Shown here: piece by piece, positions 13-63,747 of the stretch
Position numbering within the stretch: the first letter of the stretch is position 1
How the letters are laid out: every line of letters begins with the position of its first letter
Assembly (NCBI GenBank): GCA_963768425.1
Contig: CAVYHV010000015.1
Span: 63,620 to 127,619 of the forward strand
Length of the DNA stretch: 64,000 nucleotides
Reading direction: 5' to 3'
Origin: Candidatus Bathyarchaeota archaeon
Lineage (GTDB): Archaea; Thermoproteota; Bathyarchaeia; Bathyarchaeales; Bathycorpusculaceae
The notes under the pieces: generated by a model
What the model saw: only the letters and a program-made list of their open reading frames with translations
Told to the model about the DNA's origin: nothing
Databases searched by the model: none
Made by a program: the position numbers and the translations under genes

Positions 13-1524
13 ATGCTAGGTTTGGCCGTGGACTACTCGGTTTTGCAGCTTAGACGCACAAGGGAAGAACGGCTGAAAGGCAAAACAATCGAAGAAAGCG
101 TAGGAATCTCCATCAAATGGGCAGGCCAAGCTGTATTGACCGCAGGCATAACCGTCATCGTAGCTTACATCGTCATGGCGGTTGCAAACGTGCCCATATT
201 CAGCGACGTTGGAACAGCAATAGCCTTAGGAGTCGCAATCTTGCTCGCGGCGTCTTTGACTTTGCTGCCTGCTTTGGAAATTGCCTTAGGCGATAAGATC
301 TTCTGGCCAGGGCTGAAGGGAAAAATCAACGCAAAGTCTGACCCCAACAAAAACGTGCTTAGACGTTTGGCTCATTGTACGCTTAAAAGGAAAGTGCCCG
401 TTGTCGTAATCATCAGTGTCATTGCGCTAAGCGCTTTTATCGTTATGTATAGCACTCCAACAAGCGAGGAGTTCCTTAGGCTGATTCCGAACTTCCCGAG
501 CAACCAGGGACTGACTGCTTTAGCCAACGATTTTGGAAGCGGAACCTTAGGGCCGACATCAATCGTCGTCACGACTGCGACGCCGATAACTTATGGAGAG
601 AACCAGTTTAACCAGACGCTGCTTAACCAAATTGACGCCATCACAAATTCTGCTGCAGATTCCAAAGGCGTCGATTCAGCTTCGGGCACAACTAGACCCT
701 ATGGAGATGCCTTCAACTACGCTTCGATCGGTAACATGTCTGTTCCAATTCAGCAGCAGTACGAAAGCCAAATGTTCTCAACCATCGGTAAAGATAACAA
801 AACCGCAGTGATCACCGTTAACCTGGCGGATTCAGGCTTTAGCCCCGCCGCTATCAACTCGCTCAAAGGTGTCGAAAAGAACATCAGCAAACTGTCTCTA
901 CTGGCAGGAGTGAAAATTTACTATGGCGGAGAAACCCAGTCCATCTATGATGGTCAAACATTCATGACGAATTTGATTCCTGAAGTCGTGGCTATCCTTG
1001 CAGCGGCAGTCTACGTGATCTTATTCTTCCAGCTAAAATCCGCTTTTACCCCGGTTCGACTTATAGTTACGATTCTCTGCAGCGTCGTTTGCTCATTAGC
1101 AATCGTTTGCTTCGTCTTTTACTATGCCCTAAACCTGCCCATCCTTAACTTCGCGCCGCTCTTCGTTGTGGTAACCATGCTTGGCGTAGGAATAGACTAC
1201 GACATATTCTTCATAACCCGCATAAGAGAAGAAGTCCTCAACGGAAAAACAGACAATGACGCAATAGTAGAAGCCATCGACAAAGTCTGGGTAACAATCC
1301 TCGGCTTAGGCCTGGTCCTTGCAACCGTCTTCCTGTCACTGGTAATAACCAACATTGCCGTGCTTGAAGAAATCGCACTAGCCGTTGCCGCCGCAATCCT
1401 GATCGACGTAACCGTAGTAATCCTCTTCTTCGTACCTTCACTAATGGGTTTGGCGCAGAAATTCAACTGGTGGCCCTACCGATTCACAAAAAACAAAAAA
1501 GCTGAAAACAACAAGCATGTTTAG
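13..1524 (+). CDS. MMPL/RND family transporter (probably 5'-truncated by window edge)
   Basis: Two GxxxDY motifs (GLAVDY, GVGIDYDIF..RIREE), many TM segments and a large extracytoplasmic loop; the ORF starts mid-domain. Confidence 0.9.
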   Translation: MLGLAVDYSVLQLRRTREERLKGKTIEESVGISIKWAGQAVLTAGITVIVAYIVMAVANVPIFSDVGTAIALGVAILLAASLTLLPALEIALGDKIFWPGLKGKINAKSDPNKNVLRRLAHCTLKRKVPVVVIISVIALSAFIVMYSTPTSEEFLRLIPNFPSNQGLTALANDFGSGTLGPTSIVVTTATPITYGENQFNQTLLNQIDAITNSAADSKGVDSASGTTRPYGDAFNYASIGNMSVPIQQQYESQMFSTIGKDNKTAVITVNLADSGFSPAAINSLKGVEKNISKLSLLAGVKIYYGGETQSIYDGQTFMTNLIPEVVAILAAAVYVILFFQLKSAFTPVRLIVTILCSVVCSLAIVCFVFYYALNLPILNFAPLFVVVTMLGVGIDYDIFFITRIREEVLNGKTDNDAIVEAIDKVWVTILGLGLVLATVFLSLVITNIAVLEEIALAVAAAILIDVTVVILFFVPSLMGLAQKFNWWPYRFTKNKKAENNKHV

Positions 1525-14966: not shown

Positions 14967-17913
14967 ATGAGGAAAACAAAAATGCAAAAACCAATTAGTA
15001 AATCTGTGACTATTATTTTCGCAATACTTTTTTCGATTTCAATGGCAGCTTCAATTATAATGATACCAAACGCTAACGCGCATACGCCATCTTGGAGTAT
15101 TCCAGAATATGCCTACATTTTCGCTGCGCCAAGCCCTATAGGGGTAGGTCAGACAACGCACGTTTACATGTGGCTTGACAGTGTTTTCGGTGCAGCAGGC
15201 ACTGCAACCGTTGGTACAAGTGAAGCATTGCTTTCAAACAATTACAGATTCCACAACTTTCAGCTCATCATTACTTCACCTTCCGGTACAAACACAACGG
15301 AAACCTTTGCTATCGTCTCAGACCCAACATCGTCACAACCCTATTCCTTTACTCCCAGCGCAACCGGCACGTACACCTTAACATTTAATTTTCCAGGACA
15401 AGGTTATGCAGAATACGCTGGCCAGTATAATCCCACTTCAAATCTGGTTGGCGATACTTATCTGCCTTGCAGCGCGTCAACAACAATTACTGTTCAGTCA
15501 ACGCCAATAACAGGTACACCCGGTGCCCCGTTACCGACAGCTTACTGGTCATATCCAATATACGGTTCAAACTATGACTGGTACACGATTTCGTCAAACT
15601 GGCTAGGTTTTGGTGTAGGACTTTCCGCTTCTGTGCCCCCACAACCCTCAGGCTACACTAGCACTTCATTGTACTCCGGTGATGGCATAGGGCCGCTAAC
15701 TTCACACATTATGTGGACAACGCAGACTCAAATTGGCGGGGAAGTCGGAGGAAACATGTTTACCAACGATCAGTCAGTCGGCTACTTCGAAGGCTCATCA
15801 TATGCACCCAGATTCCAAAACCCGATAATAATAGACGGATACCTATACTACACAGTAGTCGCATCATTCACTGGTTCGCCTCTCTTGGGCGGAAGTCGCT
15901 ACCGGACCAACCGTCTGCGTTAATCTTCAAACAGGAAAGCAGCTCTGGAGCAACCAGAATATTCCACAACTATTAATGGGCATGACACCGGACGTTTACG
16001 ACCCTGACCAACACGGAGTTTATCCGCCAATTCTAGTTGCAAGCGTTACTGCACCTGACGGTTCAACAACTTGGGAACTGTTTGATGGTTTCACGGGAGA
16101 TGCACTATTCAACGTAACCGACGTTCCTTCAGGCGCAGCAGCATGGGGTCCACAAGGTGAGTACCTGCAGTATATCCTCACTAATGATGGCACGCCGACA
16201 GCTCCACAATGGTATTTGTCTGAATGGAACTCCTCCAGGCTTTGGTTATACGACATCAATCCATACACTGGCAGTGGAAGCGTCTCGCCGTCAATCCTAA
16301 TTCAACCCGGCAACGGTTTCCTGGGCTTTCCTTTTAGCAGTGTGCTTCCTATTCCAATCACAGGCGAAGATGTGTTTTACCCAACCGGAGCAGTAGGATT
16401 CGTACCTTACGGTTCAGCACTTAATGTCAACGGAAACATCGGCATCGCGCAAGGCCATGCTATATCTGCATTTAATTCGCCAACAACTTATGACTGGAAC
16501 ATTTCGTTATCATACCTAAACGCACTACCAGTACCACCCCTCGTTATAACTCCCATCGGCCCCATGGGCGGCGTTCCCATAACGATCGGCGCAGTAGACT
16601 ACGGAGATATGATGCTTGCCTACACTACGCTCCCAACAGGTTACGCAGCAGACGGCGGAGGCGTCCCACAACCCCCATCATGGACAATGTACGGCATAAA
16701 CCTCAACTCATCTGTAGGCGCGGTCGGTTCTGTACTTTGGAGCAAGACGATTACAACGCCACCGGGAAATCTGACTATCTCATTTAGCGGAGCTGACTGG
16801 CAGACCCGTACCTTTGAAATGAACTATGAAGAAACTATGCAATGGACAGGATTCAGTCTAACAAATGGCGCACAGCTCTGGGGACCAACTCCATCTCAAA
16901 CAGCCCTCGACTACTACGGCACACCGGGATCTCCCCCATTGCAAGCCTTCCTTGCCTACGGCACACTCTACAGCAGTTCATACGGCGGAATATGCTACGC
17001 CTATAACGATCAAACTGGAAAACTATTATGGACATGGGGCAACGGTGGACCATCTCAACCAGACAACAGCACCTACGCAGGCTTTAACGGACCTTACGGT
17101 GTCTATCCAACCCAAATACAAGCTATTGATAAAGGCGTCGTATACCTAGCTACAGATGAACACACTGTAACCAACCCAATTTACGTGGGCGCAACGATAG
17201 TCGCCATTAACGCCACCACAGGACAGCAAATATGGAGGCTTTCAGGATACCCAAGCGAATGGGCCGGGACTGGTAGCGCATGGGCTGTCGCAGCTGGCTA
17301 CTTGACATTCTTTAACGGGTACGACGGCCAAATCTACTCTGTAGGCAGAGGGCCCAGCGCAACAACAGTACAGGCACCATTGACCTCTACAACAGCCGGA
17401 GCCAACGTAGCCATACAGGGCACAGTGATCGACACTTCAACAGGCACACAGCAATCAACGCAGAAGGCTGATTTTCCCTACGGTGTTCCATGCGCATCTG
17501 ACACAAGCATGCAGGCGTGGATGGGCCACGTTTACCAGCAAATGCCAGAACCGACCGATTTCACAGGCGTTACTGTAACGTTGACCGCTCTTGATCCAAA
17601 CAACAACACTGTTCCCATCGGCCAAGCCACAACCAACGCTTATGGTCTATACAACTACCAGTGGACGCCACCAAATGTTCCAGGCAAGTACACCGTTACC
17701 GCAACATTCTCAGGCACAAATGGTTACTATCCATCAAGTGCACAAACAACTATGATCGTAGGCTCGCCAGCAGCAACAGCCGCGCCAACAGCAACACCAC
17801 TTAGCGGCGTCGCCACACAGGCTACACTCGAATACATAGGCATCGCAATCATAATCGTGATAATCATCATCGGTGCAGTACTCGCACTGCTGATGATGAG
17901 AAAACACGCATAA
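14967..17913 (+). CDS. Large secreted, C-terminally anchored PQQ-like beta-propeller protein (~981 aa; one +1 frameshift at ~15897)
   Basis: Signal peptide, repeated TGxxLW motifs, C-terminal TM plus basic tail; removing one base in GGAAGTCGCTACC gives GSATGPTVCVNLQTGKQLW and joins both ORFs. Confidence 0.85.
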
Positions 17914-17919
17914 AACAAC

Positions 17920-17954
17920 CAAGGGAAAAAACCCATTTCCCCTTTCTTTTTATT
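17920..17954 (+). terminator. Hairpin plus oligo-T terminator
   Basis: GGGAAA...TTTCCC followed by CTTTCTTTTTATT after the stop at 17913. Confidence 0.55.
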
Positions 17955-18223
17955 TAACTTTTAAGTCAGAATTTTTCAAATCGTTCAAATCTTGAAATTG
18001 ATTTATCGGCAAGGCTATCCCTCAAGAATAATAGTACACGTTGCTTCACGACTCGAAGTGTAAGATTAAATCATGAAACAAGCTTCGTGCACTCATCGAT
18101 TTGAAGAAAAATATGTAGTTGTAAGTTTTTAGAGGGCATTTTTTGTCTTTTGCTGTCAGGTAACTTATTTATTTGATGTTTTTCTATCGTATATCAGTAT
18201 TCAATGTTGAATGCTTCTTGCAC

Positions 18224-18766
18224 GTGAAAATTAAATATCCAAAACTCTCGTTGTTCATAATAAGTGTAATCTTAGTGTACTTCCTTTTTTCTGGATTAGC
18301 ATACAAACCCTTGCATGATGCCCTTATTTTCATGGGGTATTTTGGAACTTTTCTTGCGGGTTTACTGTATCCCTATGCATTAACTTCGTCGGCGGGTACA
18401 GCGATATTGCTGATTCTCGCTAAAGATCAAAACTTCCTCTTAGCAGGAGTTATAGCTGGAGGCGGCGCTTTGATAAGTGACATGGTTATCTTCCTTTTTG
18501 TTAAACATGGCTTTAATGATGAGGTACAAAAACTCTCAAAAGAAAAAGTTGTTCAAACTATTAATCGATGGATACCTGATTCCATTAGAGTCTACTTGCT
18601 TGCGACTTTTGCCAGTATTCTAATTGCATCGCCGCTTCCAACTGAAATTGGTATTATGCTAATGACATCAATAAAGAACATGTCTACCAAGAAATTCGTA
18701 ATAATTGTGTATATCCTGCATGCAAGCGCAATCTTCATAATTCTTCTAATTGGCCGCATTGTATAA
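18224..18766 (+). CDS. Hypothetical membrane protein (DedA/VTT-like)
   Basis: Multi-TM; GALISD.VIF and IASPLPTEIG motifs; AT-rich. Confidence 0.7.
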   Translation: MKIKYPKLSLFIISVILVYFLFSGLAYKPLHDALIFMGYFGTFLAGLLYPYALTSSAGTAILLILAKDQNFLLAGVIAGGGALISDMVIFLFVKHGFNDEVQKLSKEKVVQTINRWIPDSIRVYLLATFASILIASPLPTEIGIMLMTSIKNMSTKKFVIIVYILHASAIFIILLIGRIV

Positions 18767-19041
18767 TTTGGAGAGTCAAGACTTTTTTTGCTTAAGGGTA
18801 ACAAAGTCAGGCCTTTTAATGTGTTTTTCTATAAGAGATAGTTTGAGTAAAGACGCCTCGTGCAGCGTCATATGTGCTTTTTGACTGCGCCAAACCCCGC
18901 TTGTGCCTTATAGCACCTAAAGATCTCTTAGCCAGGTTTTCACTTAAACGCTTTCAATTCACTTTGCCTTTGTCGTCTAAAAACTGATAAGTAACATATC
19001 CTCTATACCATTAAGGCAAAAATGGAGGATGAGAAAATAAA

Positions 19042-19173
19042 ATGCCAAAATTAACCTTTACCGTAAGCCATGAAAACGACAAACGATTAAGAGAAAAAGT
19101 GCTTAACAGAGGCGACCTATCCTGCATAATAAACGACGCATTAGACCAATACTTCAAGAAAGCGGAACAATAA
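19042..19173 (+). CDS. Ribbon-helix-helix small DNA-binding protein (43 aa; not in ORF track)
   Basis: MPKLTFTVSHENDKRLREKVLNRGDLSCIINDALDQYFKKAEQ: alternating N-terminal strand plus S.II..AL..Y helix. Confidence 0.65.
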   Translation: MPKLTFTVSHENDKRLREKVLNRGDLSCIINDALDQYFKKAEQ

Positions 19174-19440
19174 CAAAGAAACAACAATGACAGAAGCTCC
19201 GTAAACCTTGGAAAAAGAACGATTCACAGTCAAAAAACCCAGTTGAGGAAGTTCAAAAAGTTACTAATTGTCAAGTCTATATTACGTAGAAATAAAAGCC
19301 TTCATAAATTCATTCGACATAGTCTGATAAAATAATTGCTCCACCGCAAACCGGACATCCTACTTAATTACGTCTTCTTAAATTTTAAAGATGTAAGTTA
19401 TGAAGGGTTGCATAAATTATTAGAACAACTTGTTACACAT

Positions 19441-19698
19441 ATGTTTACTATGAACAAATCAGAAGCTTTAGCGGTGTTGGGCGAGATTCGAGATGCCCTA
19501 AAAAACTCAGAGGTCTTAAGCTGCGTTTCCCTCGATGGCTCGCAGGTTTCTCACGTATCAACTGGTGGGTATGAAATAAAGATGAAATGCGAATTAGACA
19601 GCGTCTCAAAGGACGCAATAAACGGCGTACTGAAAAGAAATGAACTATACATGAAAGAACAAAACGGCTATGTAATTTTCCGTTCTCTTAAAGACTAA
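19441..19698 (+). CDS. Small hypothetical protein (paralog of 21258-21473)
   Basis: MNKSEALAVLGEI...YEIKMK...L.MKEQNGYVIF. Confidence 0.7.
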   Translation: MFTMNKSEALAVLGEIRDALKNSEVLSCVSLDGSQVSHVSTGGYEIKMKCELDSVSKDAINGVLKRNELYMKEQNGYVIFRSLKD

Positions 19699-20037
19699 CA
19701 TGACGTGATTAGCATCCTCGTTTTTCTAATCATATGACACTAGTCACGCCACTTCTATGAAATGCTGTCTTTTGATTGCTCACTGTGCGTATGCTCTAAA
19801 GAGATTACATGTTTTGTTTTGACTCATCTTTCTATGCTTGATATTTGAGAGATGCCCAAGATGCTGTGACACCGATTAGCGATTCCTTTGCAAGCTTTTT
19901 TCAAAAGACAAAGAAAGCGAAGTAAGCGCGCACTTAAGTAACATGGAAAGGGGTAAGGGAGTTTGCAATATTAAGATTTGAGGTTTACAAAAGCAAATAA
20001 AGTTATGCAACACAATCCACTGTGAGGGAGAAGGCAA

Positions 20038-20268
20038 ATGCAAGAGCCATCGCACACGTGGATTCCTAGAACAGGCAGACAATTGTTCATGAGGTGTGTC
20101 GATATCATGTGCCTCTTCGGAATAGCCGGTTATGCTTTAAAACTTCCGACATTCTTTAACAACTGGGTTTACTATCCGTTGTCGCCGAACCTCGGGGACA
20201 GCTTATTCCTATTAGTCTGCGTTGCATGGTTTGTAGTGAGATTACGAAAGCTCTATGTCTGCAATTAA
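20038..20268 (+). CDS. Small hypothetical membrane protein
   Basis: 76-aa ORF with two hydrophobic segments and a purine-rich upstream region. Confidence 0.45.
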   Translation: MQEPSHTWIPRTGRQLFMRCVDIMCLFGIAGYALKLPTFFNNWVYYPLSPNLGDSLFLLVCVAWFVVRLRKLYVCN

Positions 20269-20310
20269 AAAGCAATAAGTACGCGCTTTGCGGTATTATA
20301 TCGGCCTTTT

Positions 20311-20523
20311 TCAAACACTTTTATCAACATTGTAATTTTCCACGCGCTCCATTATCCCCCAATCTACACTTTCTAAAACCACCACACTAAGTTCTTTATC
20401 CTTATTTACTCTTAATTCTGTTCCACAGCTAGGGCATTGAATTATTTCTCCAACTTCAGCATACTTTAAGAAATCTGCTTTATTTGAGAAATCATATCCA
20501 CATTCAGGACATTTTGCACTCAT
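20311..20523 (-). CDS. LysW-like Zn-ribbon carrier protein with aberrant C-terminus
   Basis: CPECG...EVGEIIQCPSCGTELRV...ESVDWG, then a 14-aa extension instead of terminal Glu. Confidence 0.7.
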   Translation of the reverse strand: MSAKCPECGYDFSNKADFLKYAEVGEIIQCPSCGTELRVNKDKELSVVVLESVDWGIMERVENYNVDKSV

Positions 20524-21257
20524 GTGTTATACACCTCACAAGCTATGAAGCCGCGTCAATAGCCGCCTGGAAGTCGGCAGCACTAGAACCCGTTAAAACA
20601 TTACGCATGTTGTACGCCAAATAATAATTTGGTTTTGAATTATTAGATTTTATGAATTTCTGATAAGCGTTCGTGGTTAGATAACAATAACTCTGGACAG
20701 TAGTTGGTAGGCTGGAACTTTGGGTTTGAATGTCTGTTTTTCTCGTCAGCATTCTCTGTTAATAGACGCGGACGTTTGCGGAGTAAGGCTGTCGCCATTA
20801 CTCTTAATTTCTTGGCAGGCTTTCTTTCCTGAAGAAAAGGGAAGCGGAGCAAACAAGCGGGGGCGATGCAAAAAGAGCACGCGTTCGATCTTAATCTGAA
20901 CGAGAAAAGCGATTACTTTATTATTTTTTGGTTTAGAAAAGTTATTTTACTATTTTGAATTTGCTTTTGCATTCATTACAAGTGTAGCCCTCAATTACGA
21001 AATAGCTGTTCTGTAAAAGCGTTTGAGGCTTTGAAACTTCTTTGTGACAGTTAGGACATTCAGCCACTTAGATCAACTCTCTCCGTACGTTACAGTACTA
21101 TATGATATATTAAGTTATGATGTAACATCATGTGACAACACATCAACAATCAAAAATATAGATTAATTATTCAGCTATTTGGCTTCGATCTCGAGTTTCT
21201 TTGAAAATTGCATAAAGTTTATTAAATTTGTACGTTCTCAAGGGGCTGAGGGGTAAC

Positions 21258-21473
21258 TTGTTCGATAGGAAAGAAGCTGTTGCTTTATTAAGAGAGTTAG
21301 GTTTAGAGCATTTAATACAACCTTCTTTCGTCATCCTCAAACAAAGAACACCTAACAGTTACCAATTAGAGATTAAAGGCGAATATGACCACGAAGAAAT
21401 TGAGGTCTTTCTAAAGAAAAGAAACTTAACATATCAAGAGAAGAAAGACTATTTAGTTATTTTTAAGCCATAA
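21258..21473 (+). CDS. Small hypothetical protein (paralog of 19441-19698)
   Basis: DRKEAVALLREL...YQLEIK...LTYQEKKDYLVIF; TTG start after GAGGGG. Confidence 0.7.
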   Translation: MFDRKEAVALLRELGLEHLIQPSFVILKQRTPNSYQLEIKGEYDHEEIEVFLKKRNLTYQEKKDYLVIFKP

Positions 21474-21493
21474 GGAAAAATGATAATAAGTCG

Positions 21494-21619
21494 TTATCTA
21501 GTAACTTTGAAACAGCAGTTACAGTTCATACATGTGTAGGCTTCGACACGGAAAAGCTGAGTTTCCAACATTTTGTTAGGTTCTGCAACTTCTTCGCCAC
21601 AGTTAGGGCATTTAGCCAT
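21494..21619 (-). CDS. Small Zn-ribbon protein related to 9588-9752
   Basis: MAKCPNCGEEVAEPNK...AYTCMNCNCCFKV shares the MAKCPxCGxEV start. Confidence 0.65.
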   Translation of the reverse strand: MAKCPNCGEEVAEPNKMLETQLFRVEAYTCMNCNCCFKVTR

Positions 21620-21982
21620 TTTGATCTCTCGGTACGGTACAATGCCTTCCAATAGAGGAACAACTATTACTTGAAAATATGTTGGCACACTTTGATACAA
21701 CAAACAACCAGAACCAGGAGTGTGCGTTTTTTCTCTGCGCTCTTAATAATTTTTGCTTATTGTTTTCTTTATCTGTAGGAAAAAAACACTATAGGTCTCA
21801 AGAGGTCTTACTATGCAGTACTCAACATGCGAAATAAGTCGTCTCTTAAATGCAAGTTTTGGATATCATTTTTCTTAAAACCAAGCGTTTATACTATAAA
21901 ACGATGACACTTCTTTTTGGTTTACAGTTTGCTTTGCAATACAAGACCTTGATCGCAAGGTCGTCTATCTGTCGTCTATCTG

Positions 21983-22498
21983 TTAATAGAGCGAAGCCAC
22001 GATTGCAGTTGTGATCTCTTGAATTTGTGGAACCTCTGTTTGTATTTGAGAAATAAGTAGCTGCAGGTCTTTGTTATCGCTAGTTTTTACCGCGCATATT
22101 AGGTCGTAGGGTCCGAAGACCGTATCAGCCGACAAGACTTTAGGTATACCTTGAAGCTTTTCTTGGACTAGTTCAAGATTTCTAGGTTGAGTATGCAGGA
22201 GTAGGAAAGCATACGGTTCCTCAGCAAAAGATTTGCCTTCTGAGATTACAATAAGGGTTTCCGTCTTGTCAATCATTGCTCCTTGAGCAGAAATTGTTCT
22301 AATTGGGTCGAACCATTTGCTGATAAATTCGTCAAGGTTTTTTAATCCGCGTAGTTGGATAAGAACTTCAGCAGGACCAAGAAGCAAGTATATATCTTTC
22401 TTGGATAGACCAATTTTAATCAACTCATCCAAAACTTTGGTTTTAGCGCCCACTTTGCAAGATAACGTATTGCAAGATAATATCATATATACCTTCAT
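21983..22498 (-). CDS. Tandem Lrp/AsnC ligand-binding (RAM) domain protein
   Basis: Duplicated motifs LLGPAEVLI / VFGPYDLI; no HTH. Confidence 0.8.
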   Translation of the reverse strand: MKVYMILSCNTLSCKVGAKTKVLDELIKIGLSKKDIYLLLGPAEVLIQLRGLKNLDEFISKWFDPIRTISAQGAMIDKTETLIVISEGKSFAEEPYAFLLLHTQPRNLELVQEKLQGIPKVLSADTVFGPYDLICAVKTSDNKDLQLLISQIQTEVPQIQEITTAIVASLY

Positions 22499-22618
22499 AA
22501 AGTGGTCAATAGTATATTGACATAATCAGCTTGATAAGCCTAACGTAATTTTGACTTTAAGAAAGACAAGATAGCACACTTATTCTTGCCAATACGAATG
22601 TAATGTCCGAGTTGGACT

Positions 22619-22643
22619 TTTGGGCTGGTGTGTTGGTTGTAAC
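22619..22643 (-). repeat. Duplicate of RNase P RNA 3' end (att-like)
   Basis: TTTGGGCTGGTGTGTTGGTTGTAAC is identical to 24497-24521. Confidence 0.85.
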
Positions 22644-23104
22644 ACACCTATTTTGGCGAAATTGCCACAGTTTCCCCCTCTTTTTACTCTTGACCAACTA
22701 AAAGATAGTTCTTAATGGAAGCTTTTTCTTTAATGATTTCAACATCCCCTCTTTTACTCGTTTTTTTCGGGCTACTTGTTGACTATCTTAAGCACACGAT
22801 AGGATACTCTCCTCGGTCAGAACTATGATAATTGAGGGTCAAGCGCGCGCAACGAAGACTTGATAGAACTATAACTAAATTTAGGGAACTCAAATAAATA
22901 CAATGACATTTTTCAACGTTGAGCTCCTAAAGGAGTTTTAGCGAAACATTACACACCCTCAAAGAGTTAGGAAGTTACATGAAATCTATGACTAGGCAAA
23001 TTTCAGATTACGCGATTAATAATATCTTTTTTTAGAAAACATGTTGCGCCTAATTCAGTCAACAAAAAGCTTAAGTAGTTATTCAAAACAAAAGGGACTA
23101 AATA

Positions 23105-23524
23105 GTGTTCAAGATGACTAATCCTACACCTTTAATAAGTGATTCAAACAGATTAAAATCACAAGGGGCAGCACAGATTTTATCAATCGCCATATTCATA
23201 GCAGTGATTGTCTTCTCTTTAGCCGCATACTATTATATTAAACGCCCTTTTTGGGTTGCCATCTCCGCCGGTGCCTTAGGCGGATTAGTGCACGAAATGG
23301 TTCAAAGCGGCGGTAAGTATGTTCTTCCAAACACTGACGAAAATGGAGACTTCATGTTGGGTGGCTTAGTTGGATTACTTGCAGGAGGAATAGCTGGAGT
23401 GTTAACATATGAAGCACTTCTAGGAACGACTCCCATTCCATTTCCGGCAATAGCTGTTACCGCCTTCTTGGCTGGAGCAGCAGTAAAAGGAATAGCAGAT
23501 GCGGCAAATCCTCCAAAAAAATAG
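23105..23524 (+). CDS. Gly-rich membrane protein (DUF4257-like)
   Basis: AGALGGLVHE...LP...LGGLVGLLAGGIAG; ~4 TM. Confidence 0.7.
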   Translation: MFKMTNPTPLISDSNRLKSQGAAQILSIAIFIAVIVFSLAAYYYIKRPFWVAISAGALGGLVHEMVQSGGKYVLPNTDENGDFMLGGLVGLLAGGIAGVLTYEALLGTTPIPFPAIAVTAFLAGAAVKGIADAANPPKK

Positions 23525-23804
23525 AGCGTTTACTAGTTAAGCATTACAAAACACAAGAGCTCAAACTGCCTTCTGCAAACTGCACTATGTGTCATCTTAA
23601 GTCTGCAGTTGACTCTTTTAATAACCGATTTTTCCATGAGGAATTACCGCATTATTTTTAGTTTAAAGAACTTGTAAAGTCCAAATCAACAAAATATTAA
23701 TGTTTGAGTCCAAAAAGTTTTCCAACAATTTTTAGCGTCACCATATCCCAGGGTGGGAAAGCTTTTATGCTATTCAAAACAAGATAAAATATAGGGGTTT
23801 TGAA

Positions 23805-24359
23805 ATGTCTGTAGAGTCGGGAAAAAATTTGGGCGGCATCGGTTCCATATTCTTGGTGATACCAATTCCATTTCTGAGCATCGTTGGCATAATACTAGTC
23901 CTTTTTGGAATGAACAACTTATCTAAAGCGTACAACGACCCAAGCATTTGGCAAAACACGCTCTATGCTGTGGTCTTCGGAATAATAGGAATAATTGCAG
24001 CTGGCTTAACTCTTGTCTCGCTGTTTTTCGGAGGGATTTTCGCTAGCGGTGTTTTTGTAGCGGGCACAGGATTAGCAGGATTTTTTGCAGGACTCATCGT
24101 ATTTCTGGTGGTAGCTTTCATATTCTATATACTTGAAGCTATCTATATCAGAAGAGCATTTGATTCTCTCGCAAACAAATCTGGAGTTGGGTTATTTAGA
24201 ACTGGAGGATTGCTTTTGCTAATCGGTGCGGTTCTTACAATAGTTTTGGTTGGTTTGTTCTTAATTTTCATCGCGTGGATACTGATACTTGTAGCTTTCT
24301 TCCAGATACCAACAAGTTCAATGCCTCCGCAGTCTCAGATGCCACCGCCACCAATGTAG
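23805..24359 (+). CDS. DUF996 family membrane protein
   Basis: K.LGGIGSI, GIILVL, SGVGLFRTGGLLLLIGAVLTI, AFF; Pro-rich tail. Confidence 0.85.
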   Translation: MSVESGKNLGGIGSIFLVIPIPFLSIVGIILVLFGMNNLSKAYNDPSIWQNTLYAVVFGIIGIIAAGLTLVSLFFGGIFASGVFVAGTGLAGFFAGLIVFLVVAFIFYILEAIYIRRAFDSLANKSGVGLFRTGGLLLLIGAVLTIVLVGLFLIFIAWILILVAFFQIPTSSMPPQSQMPPPPM

Positions 24360-24497
24360 TGACCTAAATTTTCTTTTTTTTCTTCCATGTTCTTAGTCGT
24401 TAATTTTTCTTGTGTTAGAGCGCACTAAAAAGAGTTGTTTGGCTTTTGCGTTTGGTGCGTTGGGTTTTTGAAAACCTCTGTTGTTTACAACAAAGAT

Positions 24498-24819
24498 TTG
24501 GGCTGGTGTGTTGGTTGTAACCCGCCTTCTGTTGTCTGTGGCATTCGGCTAATCGGGCTACCCGCGCCTTGGGTAGAGTCCTCATTGGCGACTGTTTGCC
24601 CTTTCCACTTGCAGGACGGCCGTTTCACCGGTTCCATGTTGGCGCACTCGACCTCACTAAGGCGTCATCGACAAGTCCAACTGGACGTTTCGTTTCTGCT
24701 CCGTTGCTAACGCTCTCGCGTTGCTCCTTTTGGGGAGCTGCAATTCTACACGTGGGCGGAGTTTCCTCAGACCCATCATTTCTTGGGTCCGAAAGCCACA
24801 CACCAACTCGCCAGCCCAA
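24498..24819 (-). ncRNA. rnpB: Archaeal RNase P RNA
   Basis: Minus strand has conserved GAGGAAACUCCGCCC near the 5' end and AACAGAAGGCGGGUUA near the 3' end (P4 pairing); terminal helix UUGGGCUGG..GUUGG / CCAAC..CCAGCCCAA; ~320 nt, GC-rich. Confidence 0.93.
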
Positions 24820-24863
24820 CCAACAACGCACGTTGGCAAGCAATAAGAATTTCTATCATTACC

Positions 24864-25745
24864 TTAGGCGAGTTTGCCCTCTGCGATTAAAAAGACTTTG
24901 CCGCCGACCTCCGCCTGCAGAGCGTCGCCAGACTTGTAGGCTTTCAGCAGAAGCAGCGAGGGACGTCCCATTTCAATGCCTTGCTCAACCGTAACATCAA
25001 CTTCATCGGTGCCGAAGTAGCGATAATGCGATAGGTAACCTGCAAGGCAGCCGTTTCCTGACCCAGTTGCTGGATCCTCAGGGATGCCGAACAAGTTTAC
25101 GAATACGCGAACATGCAGATCTGTGCCTCCATGGATTGTTTGAGAGCAGAAAATCAATATGCCTCCTTTGACTTCGCTGGTCATCTCGCGGAGACGAGTA
25201 ATGTTTATGGTTGCTCGTTTGGCTGCATCTAAGGTTTTTAGAGGCACAATTATGAAGGGCATGCCTGTGGAAACTTCCTGAATTGGGAACCGATGGTCAA
25301 AATCCGCTTCGTTAATTTGCAGAACTTTAGCGAGCTTCGAGGTTGCGAATGTTTCTCCGAAAACTGGGGGAACCTGCTTCATCCACAACGTTTCTTGATC
25401 GGCATCTTTTTCGAAGCTGACAGGTATCTGCCCAACCTTTAGATTAAGCATAACTTTGTCCTCTTTGTCGCCTGCTATGAAATGTTTGATTACGTATGCT
25501 GTGCCCAAGGTTGGGTGTCCTGCGAAAGGAATCTCAGAATTGGGTGTGAAGATGCGTACATCGTAGCCTCCGTTCCGCGGCAGGCTTGAAAGAATGAAAG
25601 TGGTTTCTGAAAAATGCATCTCGTTCGCTATCTTCTGCATCTCCACAGTCGCAAAACCGCCTGCGTTAATGAACACTGCAAGCTGGTTGCCTGCATATTT
25701 TTCCTGCCCGAACACATCAACCAAATAAAATTTTAAACCGTTCAT
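24864..25745 (-). CDS. PhzF family isomerase
   Basis: VDVF...GNQLAVF, SETTF, RIFTP..EIPFAGHPTLG, EDPATGSG. Confidence 0.93.
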   Translation of the reverse strand: MNGLKFYLVDVFGQEKYAGNQLAVFINAGGFATVEMQKIANEMHFSETTFILSSLPRNGGYDVRIFTPNSEIPFAGHPTLGTAYVIKHFIAGDKEDKVMLNLKVGQIPVSFEKDADQETLWMKQVPPVFGETFATSKLAKVLQINEADFDHRFPIQEVSTGMPFIIVPLKTLDAAKRATINITRLREMTSEVKGGILIFCSQTIHGGTDLHVRVFVNLFGIPEDPATGSGNGCLAGYLSHYRYFGTDEVDVTVEQGIEMGRPSLLLLKAYKSGDALQAEVGGKVFLIAEGKLA

Positions 25746-55670: not shown

Positions 55671-56339
55671 ATGACATTAGAATCTAGCAAAACTTTGGGC
55701 GGTGTCGGTTCAATTCTGCTCCTCATCGGTGTACTACCGTATGTAAGTTCAATAACCTTTGGCGTTCTTGGAATTGTAGGCATTATACTTATTCTGATTT
55801 CGCTGCACGGCTTTGCAAACATTTACCATGATAAAGGAATATTCAACAATTCTCTATATGGATTTATCGCGGGCATAGTTGGCGCAGTCATAGCGGCAGT
55901 AGTTGCCTTTGCGGTAGTCCTAAGCAATTTAACAAGTCTTCTCCAGAAAATCTATCCAACTTGGAACGGAAAACTGTCTTCAATTCAATCACTTTCAGGC
56001 ATGACTCCACAAACGACGAACTTGCACTTCAGCGATGTTGTTCCGCTGCTGGAAGGCCTCGTGGCAGTGTTTTTGATCCTTTGGATCTTCATAATCATAT
56101 GGGCTATCTTCGCTAGGAAATCACTGAAAACTCTTTCAACCAAATCAAGTGTAGGCTTATTCTCAACCGCGTCTCTTCTGCTGATAATAGGTGCAGCGTT
56201 AACGATAATTATCATCGGCCTTCTTCTGTTGTGGATTGGCGTGCTGCTGATGGCTATCGCATTCTTCCAGATTAAACCGCAAATGGAACAGCAACCAGTA
56301 ACCTATGTTGAGCCCCCAACACAACCGACACCAGTTTAA
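55671..56339 (+). CDS. DUF996 family membrane protein (paralog of 23805-24359)
   Basis: ESSKTLGGVGSI, VGLFSTA.LLLIIGA.LTI, AFFQI. Confidence 0.85.
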   Translation: MTLESSKTLGGVGSILLLIGVLPYVSSITFGVLGIVGIILILISLHGFANIYHDKGIFNNSLYGFIAGIVGAVIAAVVAFAVVLSNLTSLLQKIYPTWNGKLSSIQSLSGMTPQTTNLHFSDVVPLLEGLVAVFLILWIFIIIWAIFARKSLKTLSTKSSVGLFSTASLLLIIGAALTIIIIGLLLLWIGVLLMAIAFFQIKPQMEQQPVTYVEPPTQPTPV

Positions 56340-63537: not shown

Positions 63538-63747
63538 ATGTCAAACAAATCCAATTATTTCGACAAAAAGTTTCTTTATTCTATGCTAATTGGCTTGTTT
63601 CTTCTGCTATTATTCCTGTTTCCATTTACTCATGCACAAGCTAGTGAATGGACGACCTCAGAAACCAATCAAATATATTTTGTCATAGCTATTCTAATTA
63701 TCTTAATTTTGTACATCTTCTATAGATGGAGAAAAAGAAATCCCTGA
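63538..63747 (+). CDS. Small two-TM hypothetical protein
   Basis: Signal-like segment, TM and basic tail RWRKR. Confidence 0.5.
   Translation: MSNKSNYFDKKFLYSMLIGLFLLLLFLFPFTHAQASEWTTSETNQIYFVIAILIILILYIFYRWRKRNP

Follow-up and report, generated by a model that had tools for sequence, protein, structure and literature searches.

Introduction

tRNA and tmRNA genes are the textbook targets of site-specific integration, which takes place at their 3' ends, and tools for mapping genomic islands have been built on them. Cis-mobilizable elements (CIMEs), which derive from integrative and conjugative elements (ICEs) and are known from Streptococcus thermophilus, have functional-looking attachment (att) sites, have lost their recombination and transfer genes, and can form tandem arrays with intact elements at a shared site. 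Here, we describe a locus at which the gene for RNase P RNA, rnpB, takes the place of the tRNA or tmRNA gene. The DNA analyzed, referred to below as the window, is a stretch of 64,000 nt from a Candidatus Bathyarchaeota archaeon (positions 63,620 to 127,619 of contig CAVYHV010000015.1, assembly GCA_963768425.1), in which rnpB is followed by an island of about 1.9 kb that ends in a second copy of the rnpB 3' end and is very probably the remnant of a small integrated element.

Several described systems come close to this arrangement. Islands mapped with Islander are recognized by integration at tRNA or tmRNA 3' ends, on the logic of an intact gene accompanied by a displaced fragment, as set out in the available text of that work (PMC4383910). 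The phage phiEf11 of Enterococcus faecalis has its bacterial attachment site (attB) inside ffs, the 4.5S/SRP RNA gene, and this target was published as novel in 2025; the RNA targets named in the available part of that paper are tRNA/tmRNA, csRNA and ffs, with no mention there of rnpB (PMC12540744). According to the accessible text of two further sources, archaeal integrases fall into an SSV type, with the element's own attachment site (attP) inside the integrase gene, which is split on integration, and a pNOB8 type, in which the integrase gene stays intact (PMC7253208, PMC8371274). The term "RNase P" is absent from the available text of a review of archaeal tyrosine recombinases and of a survey of thaumarchaeal integrated elements, and ProBord pools "ncRNA" targets, which are not named in the main text available (PMC13626063). 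No report of rnpB as an att site was found in the literature as far as it was accessible, although the target tables and supplements of TIGER and Islander may list it.

Two copies of the rnpB 3' end bound an island

The rnpB gene of the window (24497-24819, minus strand) encodes an intact archaeal RNase P RNA. The Rfam model RF00373 matches 24811..24506 on the minus strand with 191.4 bits, against a gathering score of 84, and covers model positions 1-288 without truncation; by eye, 24812-24819 also pairs with 24497-24504, a possible extension of helix P1. The last 25 nt of the gene (24497-24521, minus strand), which cover the 3' strand of P1 and overrun the RF00373 model by a few bases, constitute the attL core. 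The initial annotation had noticed that this 25-mer recurs exactly and in the same orientation at 22619-22643, and a pattern search and a repeat finder agree: the second copy (minus strand), a displaced rnpB 3' end referred to here as the attR core, is identical, and the pair extends to 31 nt with 29/31 matches (94% identity) at a spacing of 1878 nt. No match was found in any of 100 shuffled sequences, even with up to three mismatches. The two copies are the only ones in the whole 2.96-Mb assembly, so the 25-mer is not a dispersed repeat, a reading that the same annotation had left open. A full rnpB gene and a displaced same-strand 3' fragment thus bound an insert, as in islands of the tRNA/tmRNA type; no tRNA or tmRNA gene is present in the window, the target here being RNase P RNA (RF00373). 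Nor was a tRNA gene found near the integrases elsewhere in the genome, on C8, C14, C28 and C30.

The two cores are separated by 1,853 nt, which hold two genes for membrane proteins. One (23805-24359, plus strand) encodes a 184-aa DUF996 protein (PF06195, E 4.3e-29) and is, as had been proposed, a distant paralogue of 55671-56339 (31% identity, E 2.6e-12); the genome has seven DUF996 loci, including the island copy. The other (23105-23524, plus strand) encodes a 139-aa protein of no named family and has no other copy in the genome. The genes inside the island are not duplicates of its flanks. On the far side of attR, the host flank (21983..22618, minus strand) consists of an Lrp/AsnC-family gene (21983-22498, PF01037) and its upstream region.

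Contigs from an RNA library (metatranscriptome run X9) cover 24503-24807 at high depth, with adapter letters abutting both ends. These boundaries are a weak hint at RNA termini, 3-4 nt off the ends of the Rfam model, and faintly suggest that the core covers about the last 19 nt of the RNase P RNA. The 5' side of rnpB is also variable: a PhzF-family gene (24864-25745) lies between rnpB and an adenylate-kinase-like gene in the window and in two relatives (G072 and G014), and is absent from that position in most other relatives.

The same site is occupied in many relatives

Up to 20 kb around rnpB was taken from 17 genomes of the same genus that had a downstream flank. The content downstream of rnpB differs in all 17; in eight, the genome's own rnpB 3' end is repeated once or twice in the same orientation at a distance of 0.7-11 kb downstream, and in seven a PF00589 integrase or integrase fragment touches the rnpB 3' end. 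The integrase-linked rnpB duplicates for which the initial annotation had suggested searching are therefore present in relatives: an integrase stands at the rnpB 3' end in G003, G008, G010, G015, G072, G095, G105 and others, and the 3' end of the gene recurs 3-8.5 kb downstream. A degenerate core pattern gave 189 matches in 98 of all 120 genomes of the genus, versus three for a reversed control. Two to three same-strand core copies within about 9 kb were found in at least 29 of the 120 genomes, a count drawn from 150 of the 189 pattern matches plus genome G002. Twenty multi-copy loci were fetched for inspection: 16 start at a full rnpB, three begin with a 110-120-nt rnpB 3' fragment and two lack any rnpB, and the proximal copy is accompanied by an integrase or integrase fragment in 12 of the 20. 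Tandem arrays mixing integrase-bearing and integrase-less units are common in the relatives.

The far side of the site is shared as well. The Lrp/AsnC orthologue comes after the last att copy in four genomes (G002, G118, G009 and G072), and the distal copies that precede it have decayed to various degrees, with 51/58 matches in G002 and 4-5 mismatches in G072.

Five att-core pairs lie away from a full rnpB (L061 on G099:C7, L069 on G060:C5, L072 on G110:C25, L060 on G099:C6 and L071 on G013:C1). Three of them start with an rnpB remnant, its last 110-120 nt, and in the other two rnpB is missing; the pairs of L061 and L071 hold complete integrases; such pairs are secondary sites or relocated pieces of arrays. 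The assembly of G023 breaks at rnpB, with identical copies at the end of contig C4 and the start of C13 (L040, L041), while G020 has an rnpB match (C75:37880-38029) without the part matching about 38-198 of the window's rnpB, used as the query, and further rnpB 3' fragments on another contig (C27:22249-22315). Both patterns fit strain heterogeneity or rearrangement at a hot spot. A putative pair of genes for a PIN-domain-like protein and a small antitoxin-like protein adjoins att copies in two loci, at +8..+615 after rnpB in L042 (G002) and at +11074..+11702 in L034 (G003); in G002, this predicted pair makes up the entire 688 nt between rnpB and the displaced fragment.

A clade of tyrosine integrases is linked to rnpB

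Three types of tyrosine integrase occupy the rnpB 3' end in relatives: int1 (about 306 aa, in G003), int2 (about 385 aa, in G008, and frameshifted in G010) and int3, encoded on the opposite strand (in G015; G014 has a fragment). G030, from another family of the order, has an int1-like gene that starts at the rnpB 3' end. In an alignment of five int2 proteins, no variation occurs in the catalytic residues R, H-x-x-R, H and Y. A search with this alignment of one genome per prokaryote species returned 29 loci, all in Bathyarchaeia/Thermoproteota records, and at 23 of these the integrase is preceded on its own strand by rnpB or a 3' fragment of it, whose end is no more than about 120 nt away; one of the 23 holds only a C-terminal fragment of the integrase. 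Among metagenome contigs from JGI, 29 of 39 int2 loci have rnpB or a fragment of it directly upstream. The initial annotation had regarded the 3' strand of rnpB as an unusual attB; the identity of the target stands and the implied rarity does not, rnpB being a regular site of at least one integrase clade rather than an occasional target.

Intact int2 elements measure 3-8.5 kb in the genome loci and 4.8-5.8 kb in six complete pairs from metagenomes. Reading from the left end, they consist of an att core, a spacer of about 85 nt containing a hairpin and a T-run, and an int2 gene of about 385 aa that reads away from rnpB; next often comes a Cys-rich Rep-like protein (about 320-390 aa), and the cargo is then followed by a right arm, which is conserved, and by the second core.

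An SSV-type, self-splitting integrase was also considered, since several int reading frames continue without a stop across the att core and the rnpB 3' end, and was rejected: in L067 and L071 the gene has its own start codon after a stop, and full-length catalytic integrases lie on one side.

The Cys-rich protein stands alongside the integrase in six loci (L034, L054, L058, L061, L062 and L065), for example at L034:6822-7982 (minus strand), L054:8148-9101 (plus), L061:5642-6529 (minus) and L062:7318-8070 (minus), and a homologue with 30% identity is encoded on another contig of the window's genome (G000:C8:111410-112432). It has HUH-like motifs, and its P-H-x-H and Y-Q-x-x-H are invariant. No sequence match was found in Pfam, PHROG, NCBIfam or the PDB. 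The structural model has a pLDDT of 52, and its top fold rows in VIA-align are HUH Reps (SIRV1 ORF119, AAV Rep and RepB), with Z scores of just 4.5-3.2; Foldseek returned nothing for it at E <= 0.001. The protein is probably an unclassified rolling-circle Rep.

The arms of the island match the ends of integrase-bearing elements

The left arm of the island (24434..24496, minus strand) is homologous to the spacer that separates the att core from the integrase start in intact int2 elements. In a blastn comparison with all fetched loci, window positions 24521 to 24439 (the core and about 58 nt) are 84-93% identical to eight of them (L073, L074, L075, L076, L077, L081, L093 and L048), and the alignment stops exactly at the integrase ribosome-binding site and ATG of those loci, beyond which the window is unrelated. 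The arm opens, immediately past the rnpB 3' end, with an 8-bp hairpin and then has a T4 run; it may be the present terminator of rnpB transcription. Because the match stops where the relatives have the ribosome-binding site and start codon of their integrase, the integrase of the window's element appears to have been deleted, with a predicted breakpoint at about 24434-24440, just before the ribosome-binding site.

The right arm (22644..22685, minus strand) carries the palindromic motif GTGGCAATTTCGCCAAA at 22652-22668. Window positions 22685 to 22619 share 78-93% identity with the sequence immediately internal to the distal att of six loci (L056, L066 in two places, L095, L079, L039 and L057); the motif is common to those loci and occurs once in this genome. 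In L079 and L095, the right arm, a degenerate core and int2 follow one another in attP order. Since its arms match conserved element ends in relatives, both ends of the 1.85-kb unit are element ends. The island thus has att sites on both sides, arms that match those of autonomous elements and no recombination genes, features of a CIME-like, integrase-less element; an integrase beside the att site is absent here and present at this site in relatives.

On the far side of the host Lrp gene, in the low-GC tract 17900-22500, three related small zinc-ribbon ORFs or motifs lie at 20311-21703 (direct-repeat families D1/D2, at 20416, 21038 and 21590), one of which matches a LysW-like zinc ribbon.

Close relatives with an empty or differently filled site

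The closest relative, G072, is 93% identical to the window over 2.5 kb upstream of rnpB and 95% identical over the Lrp flank. In G072, the degenerate core in front of the same Lrp gene stands 27.7 kb away from rnpB, and the interval holds an int3 element plus another 22 kb. Four public runs supplied Logan contigs, which were aligned to 21500-25500 at a 90% likeness threshold; positions 22706-23643 are uncovered in all four runs (run shares 0.07-0.13) and are uninformative. A 1749-nt contig from a peat metagenome (X1), about 94% identical to the window, connects 22589 with 24497 through 49 letters of other sequence where the window has 1907. The peat relative behind this contig is without the island, its Lrp flank being joined to rnpB, so that the island-free relative for which the initial annotation had advised looking exists. 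Because the same interval measures 27.7 kb in G072 and 49 nt in the peat contig, the segment between rnpB and attR turns over among close relatives. The presence of the island is sporadic, the site being empty or differently filled in the peat contig, in G072 and in the 17 relatives.

In a second peat contig (run X2), 24495 is followed by 22618, so that the sequence steps back by exactly 1878 nt; the shorter side of the junction measures 36 letters. This back-joint is the junction expected of an excised circle or of a tandem copy. It is unlikely to be an assembly chimera, because the 25-nt repeat is shorter than the 31-mers underlying the contigs.

Origin of the island

The unit in the window is, with high confidence, a small plasmid-like element that was integrated by a tyrosine recombinase at the core in the rnpB 3' end and then decayed. 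The initial annotation had also read the repeat as the relic of an integration, and that reading is borne out by the homologies of the arms, the adjacency of integrases to the repeat in relatives and the presence or absence of the unit among close relatives. The element would have entered by recombination of its attP core with the matching 25 nt that end rnpB, presumably catalyzed by an int2-type integrase and with a predicted crossover in the core. Such an integration would leave rnpB whole, as the element would supply a replacement 3' strand of P1 and probably also the downstream hairpin and T-run, and the original 3' end of the gene would be displaced to the far side, beside the host Lrp/AsnC gene. 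The integrase, and the Rep if one was ever carried, would later have been deleted, leaving attL, the left arm, the two genes for membrane proteins, the right arm and attR.

Several observations weigh against this account. The contig of the window has no match to the PF00589 integrase family, and relaxed tblastn searches of 17900-24600 with integrases and Rep-like proteins as queries (E up to 5) yielded no remnant of either, which agrees with the absence of an integrase noted in the initial annotation and makes the mechanism dependent on the relatives. The association of int2 with rnpB is not universal: six of the 29 genome loci and ten of the 39 metagenome loci have no rnpB upstream by blastn, and an Rfam E-value scan of these 16 loci found no RNase P RNA and a single tRNA. 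That tRNA gene (505-594, minus strand) lies in a metagenome locus without rnpB (L135), in which the integrase starts at 810, a hint that the clade has switched or shares targets. The link of the int2 clade to rnpB is thus strong, not exclusive. Neither a free circular element nor a viral contig with an attP came to light, none of the small int2 contigs has a terminal overlap, and the viral contigs of IMG/VR hold no relatives of the att pattern, the int2 alignment or the Rep-like alignment. GC content fails to set the island apart from the Lrp side, the low-GC tract 17900-24500 far exceeding the repeat-bounded unit. The back-joint rests on a single contig of depth 3.8 at the 90% threshold; a joint that would fit the excision junction for which the initial annotation had advised looking thus occurs once, and a tandem copy would look alike. 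Lastly, the right-arm type of the window also closes the int3-type element of G072, which bears on the derivation of the unit from one element, and the unit may be a fusion or chimera of two tandem elements formed by an internal deletion.

How far the unit has decayed is a separate matter. Rather than a dead remnant, it could be a live, non-autonomous element, CIME-like or satellite-like, that is excised and re-inserted in trans by the int2-type integrases of other elements, whether co-resident or incoming. Its arms and cores are all intact, the cores being identical at 25 of 25 positions while the orthologous attR of G072 has decayed, the exact 1878-nt back-joint would fit a live satellite, and arrays combining units with and without an integrase are frequent in relatives. 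However, an int2 orthologue is missing from this genome (tblastn gave its best match on contig C28, at 25% identity), a tandem duplication would give the same joint as the one low-depth contig, and no copy of the unit was found at other loci or in the other genomes fetched; we consider current mobility rather unlikely. Equally doubtful is a broader proposition, according to which, genus-wide, the last 20 or so nucleotides of the RNase P ribozyme and its terminator would routinely be supplied by mobile DNA, through a dedicated integrase clade with the 3' strand of P1 as its attB, and the 1.9-kb unit of the window would be a still-mobile, integrase-less satellite moved in trans.

The two explanations that dispense with integration altogether have very little in their favor. 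The repeat could be the seam of an integrase-free event, either a microhomology-mediated duplication or insertion or homologous recombination beside rnpB, given that the window has no integrase and that an identity of 25 nt cannot by itself separate the mechanisms. However, the DNA inside both repeats matches the ends of integrase-bearing elements of other species, the genes between the repeats do not duplicate the flanks, and the same site holds integrases in many relatives. An origin as a duplication seam was rejected on the arm homologies, and an integrase-free origin of any kind is highly improbable. It is just as improbable that the distal copy is a functional sequence kept by selection, for example a regulatory or decoy fragment of RNase P RNA before the Lrp/AsnC gene. 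An att-like copy does precede the Lrp orthologue in G002, G009, G118 and G072, but these copies vary in length and in degree of decay, as a displaced fragment would.

Significance

Decayed integration of a small plasmid-like element, the preferred account, brings RNase P RNA, a further essential structural RNA, under the integration logic of the tRNA/tmRNA type, in a lineage of uncultured archaea. The finding reaches beyond a single case, with an integrase clade beside rnpB in most of the loci examined, tandem arrays and fast turnover among close relatives. Island-mapping pipelines gain an additional RNA target, and the small elements, which pair an integrase with an unclassified Rep-like protein and are missing from viral catalogues, provide a handle on the almost unknown plasmid-like mobilome of Bathyarchaeia. 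The integrase/att pairs are candidates for genetics in a group without genetic tools. The account also makes a testable point, namely that the 3' strand of P1 of a ribozyme gene, together with the downstream hairpin and T-run, would be element-derived after each integration.

Comparison with known systems

The unit in the window shares with the CIMEs of Streptococcus the combination of att sites and lost recombination genes; the elements at rnpB differ from CIMEs in being archaeal and small and in having a probable HUH-like Rep in place of conjugation genes. The resemblance to phiEf11, as far as the available account of that phage extends, lies in a core of about 25-27 nt inside a structural RNA gene other than a tRNA gene and in an attP near the integrase gene; the RNA gene is a different one here, and phiEf11 is a tailed phage of a bacterial host. 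As in the SSV and pNOB8 types, in the parts of the sources available, archaeal tyrosine recombinases place small plasmids or viruses into RNA genes; the rnpB-linked integrases are unsplit and hence resemble the pNOB8-like rather than the SSV kind. The likeness is most extensive with Islander-type islands, in which the target is also regenerated by the element, a 3' fragment in direct orientation lies at the far end, the integrase stands beside att, and tandem arrays, sporadic presence among relatives and integrase-less remnants after decay are likewise encountered. Unlike those islands, the elements described here have the 3' strand of P1 of RNase P RNA as their target and Bathyarchaeia as their hosts, and the copy in the window has no integrase. 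The mechanism is thus a known one, whereas rnpB as a target and the integrase clade that uses it appear to be unreported, the copy in the window being a remnant.

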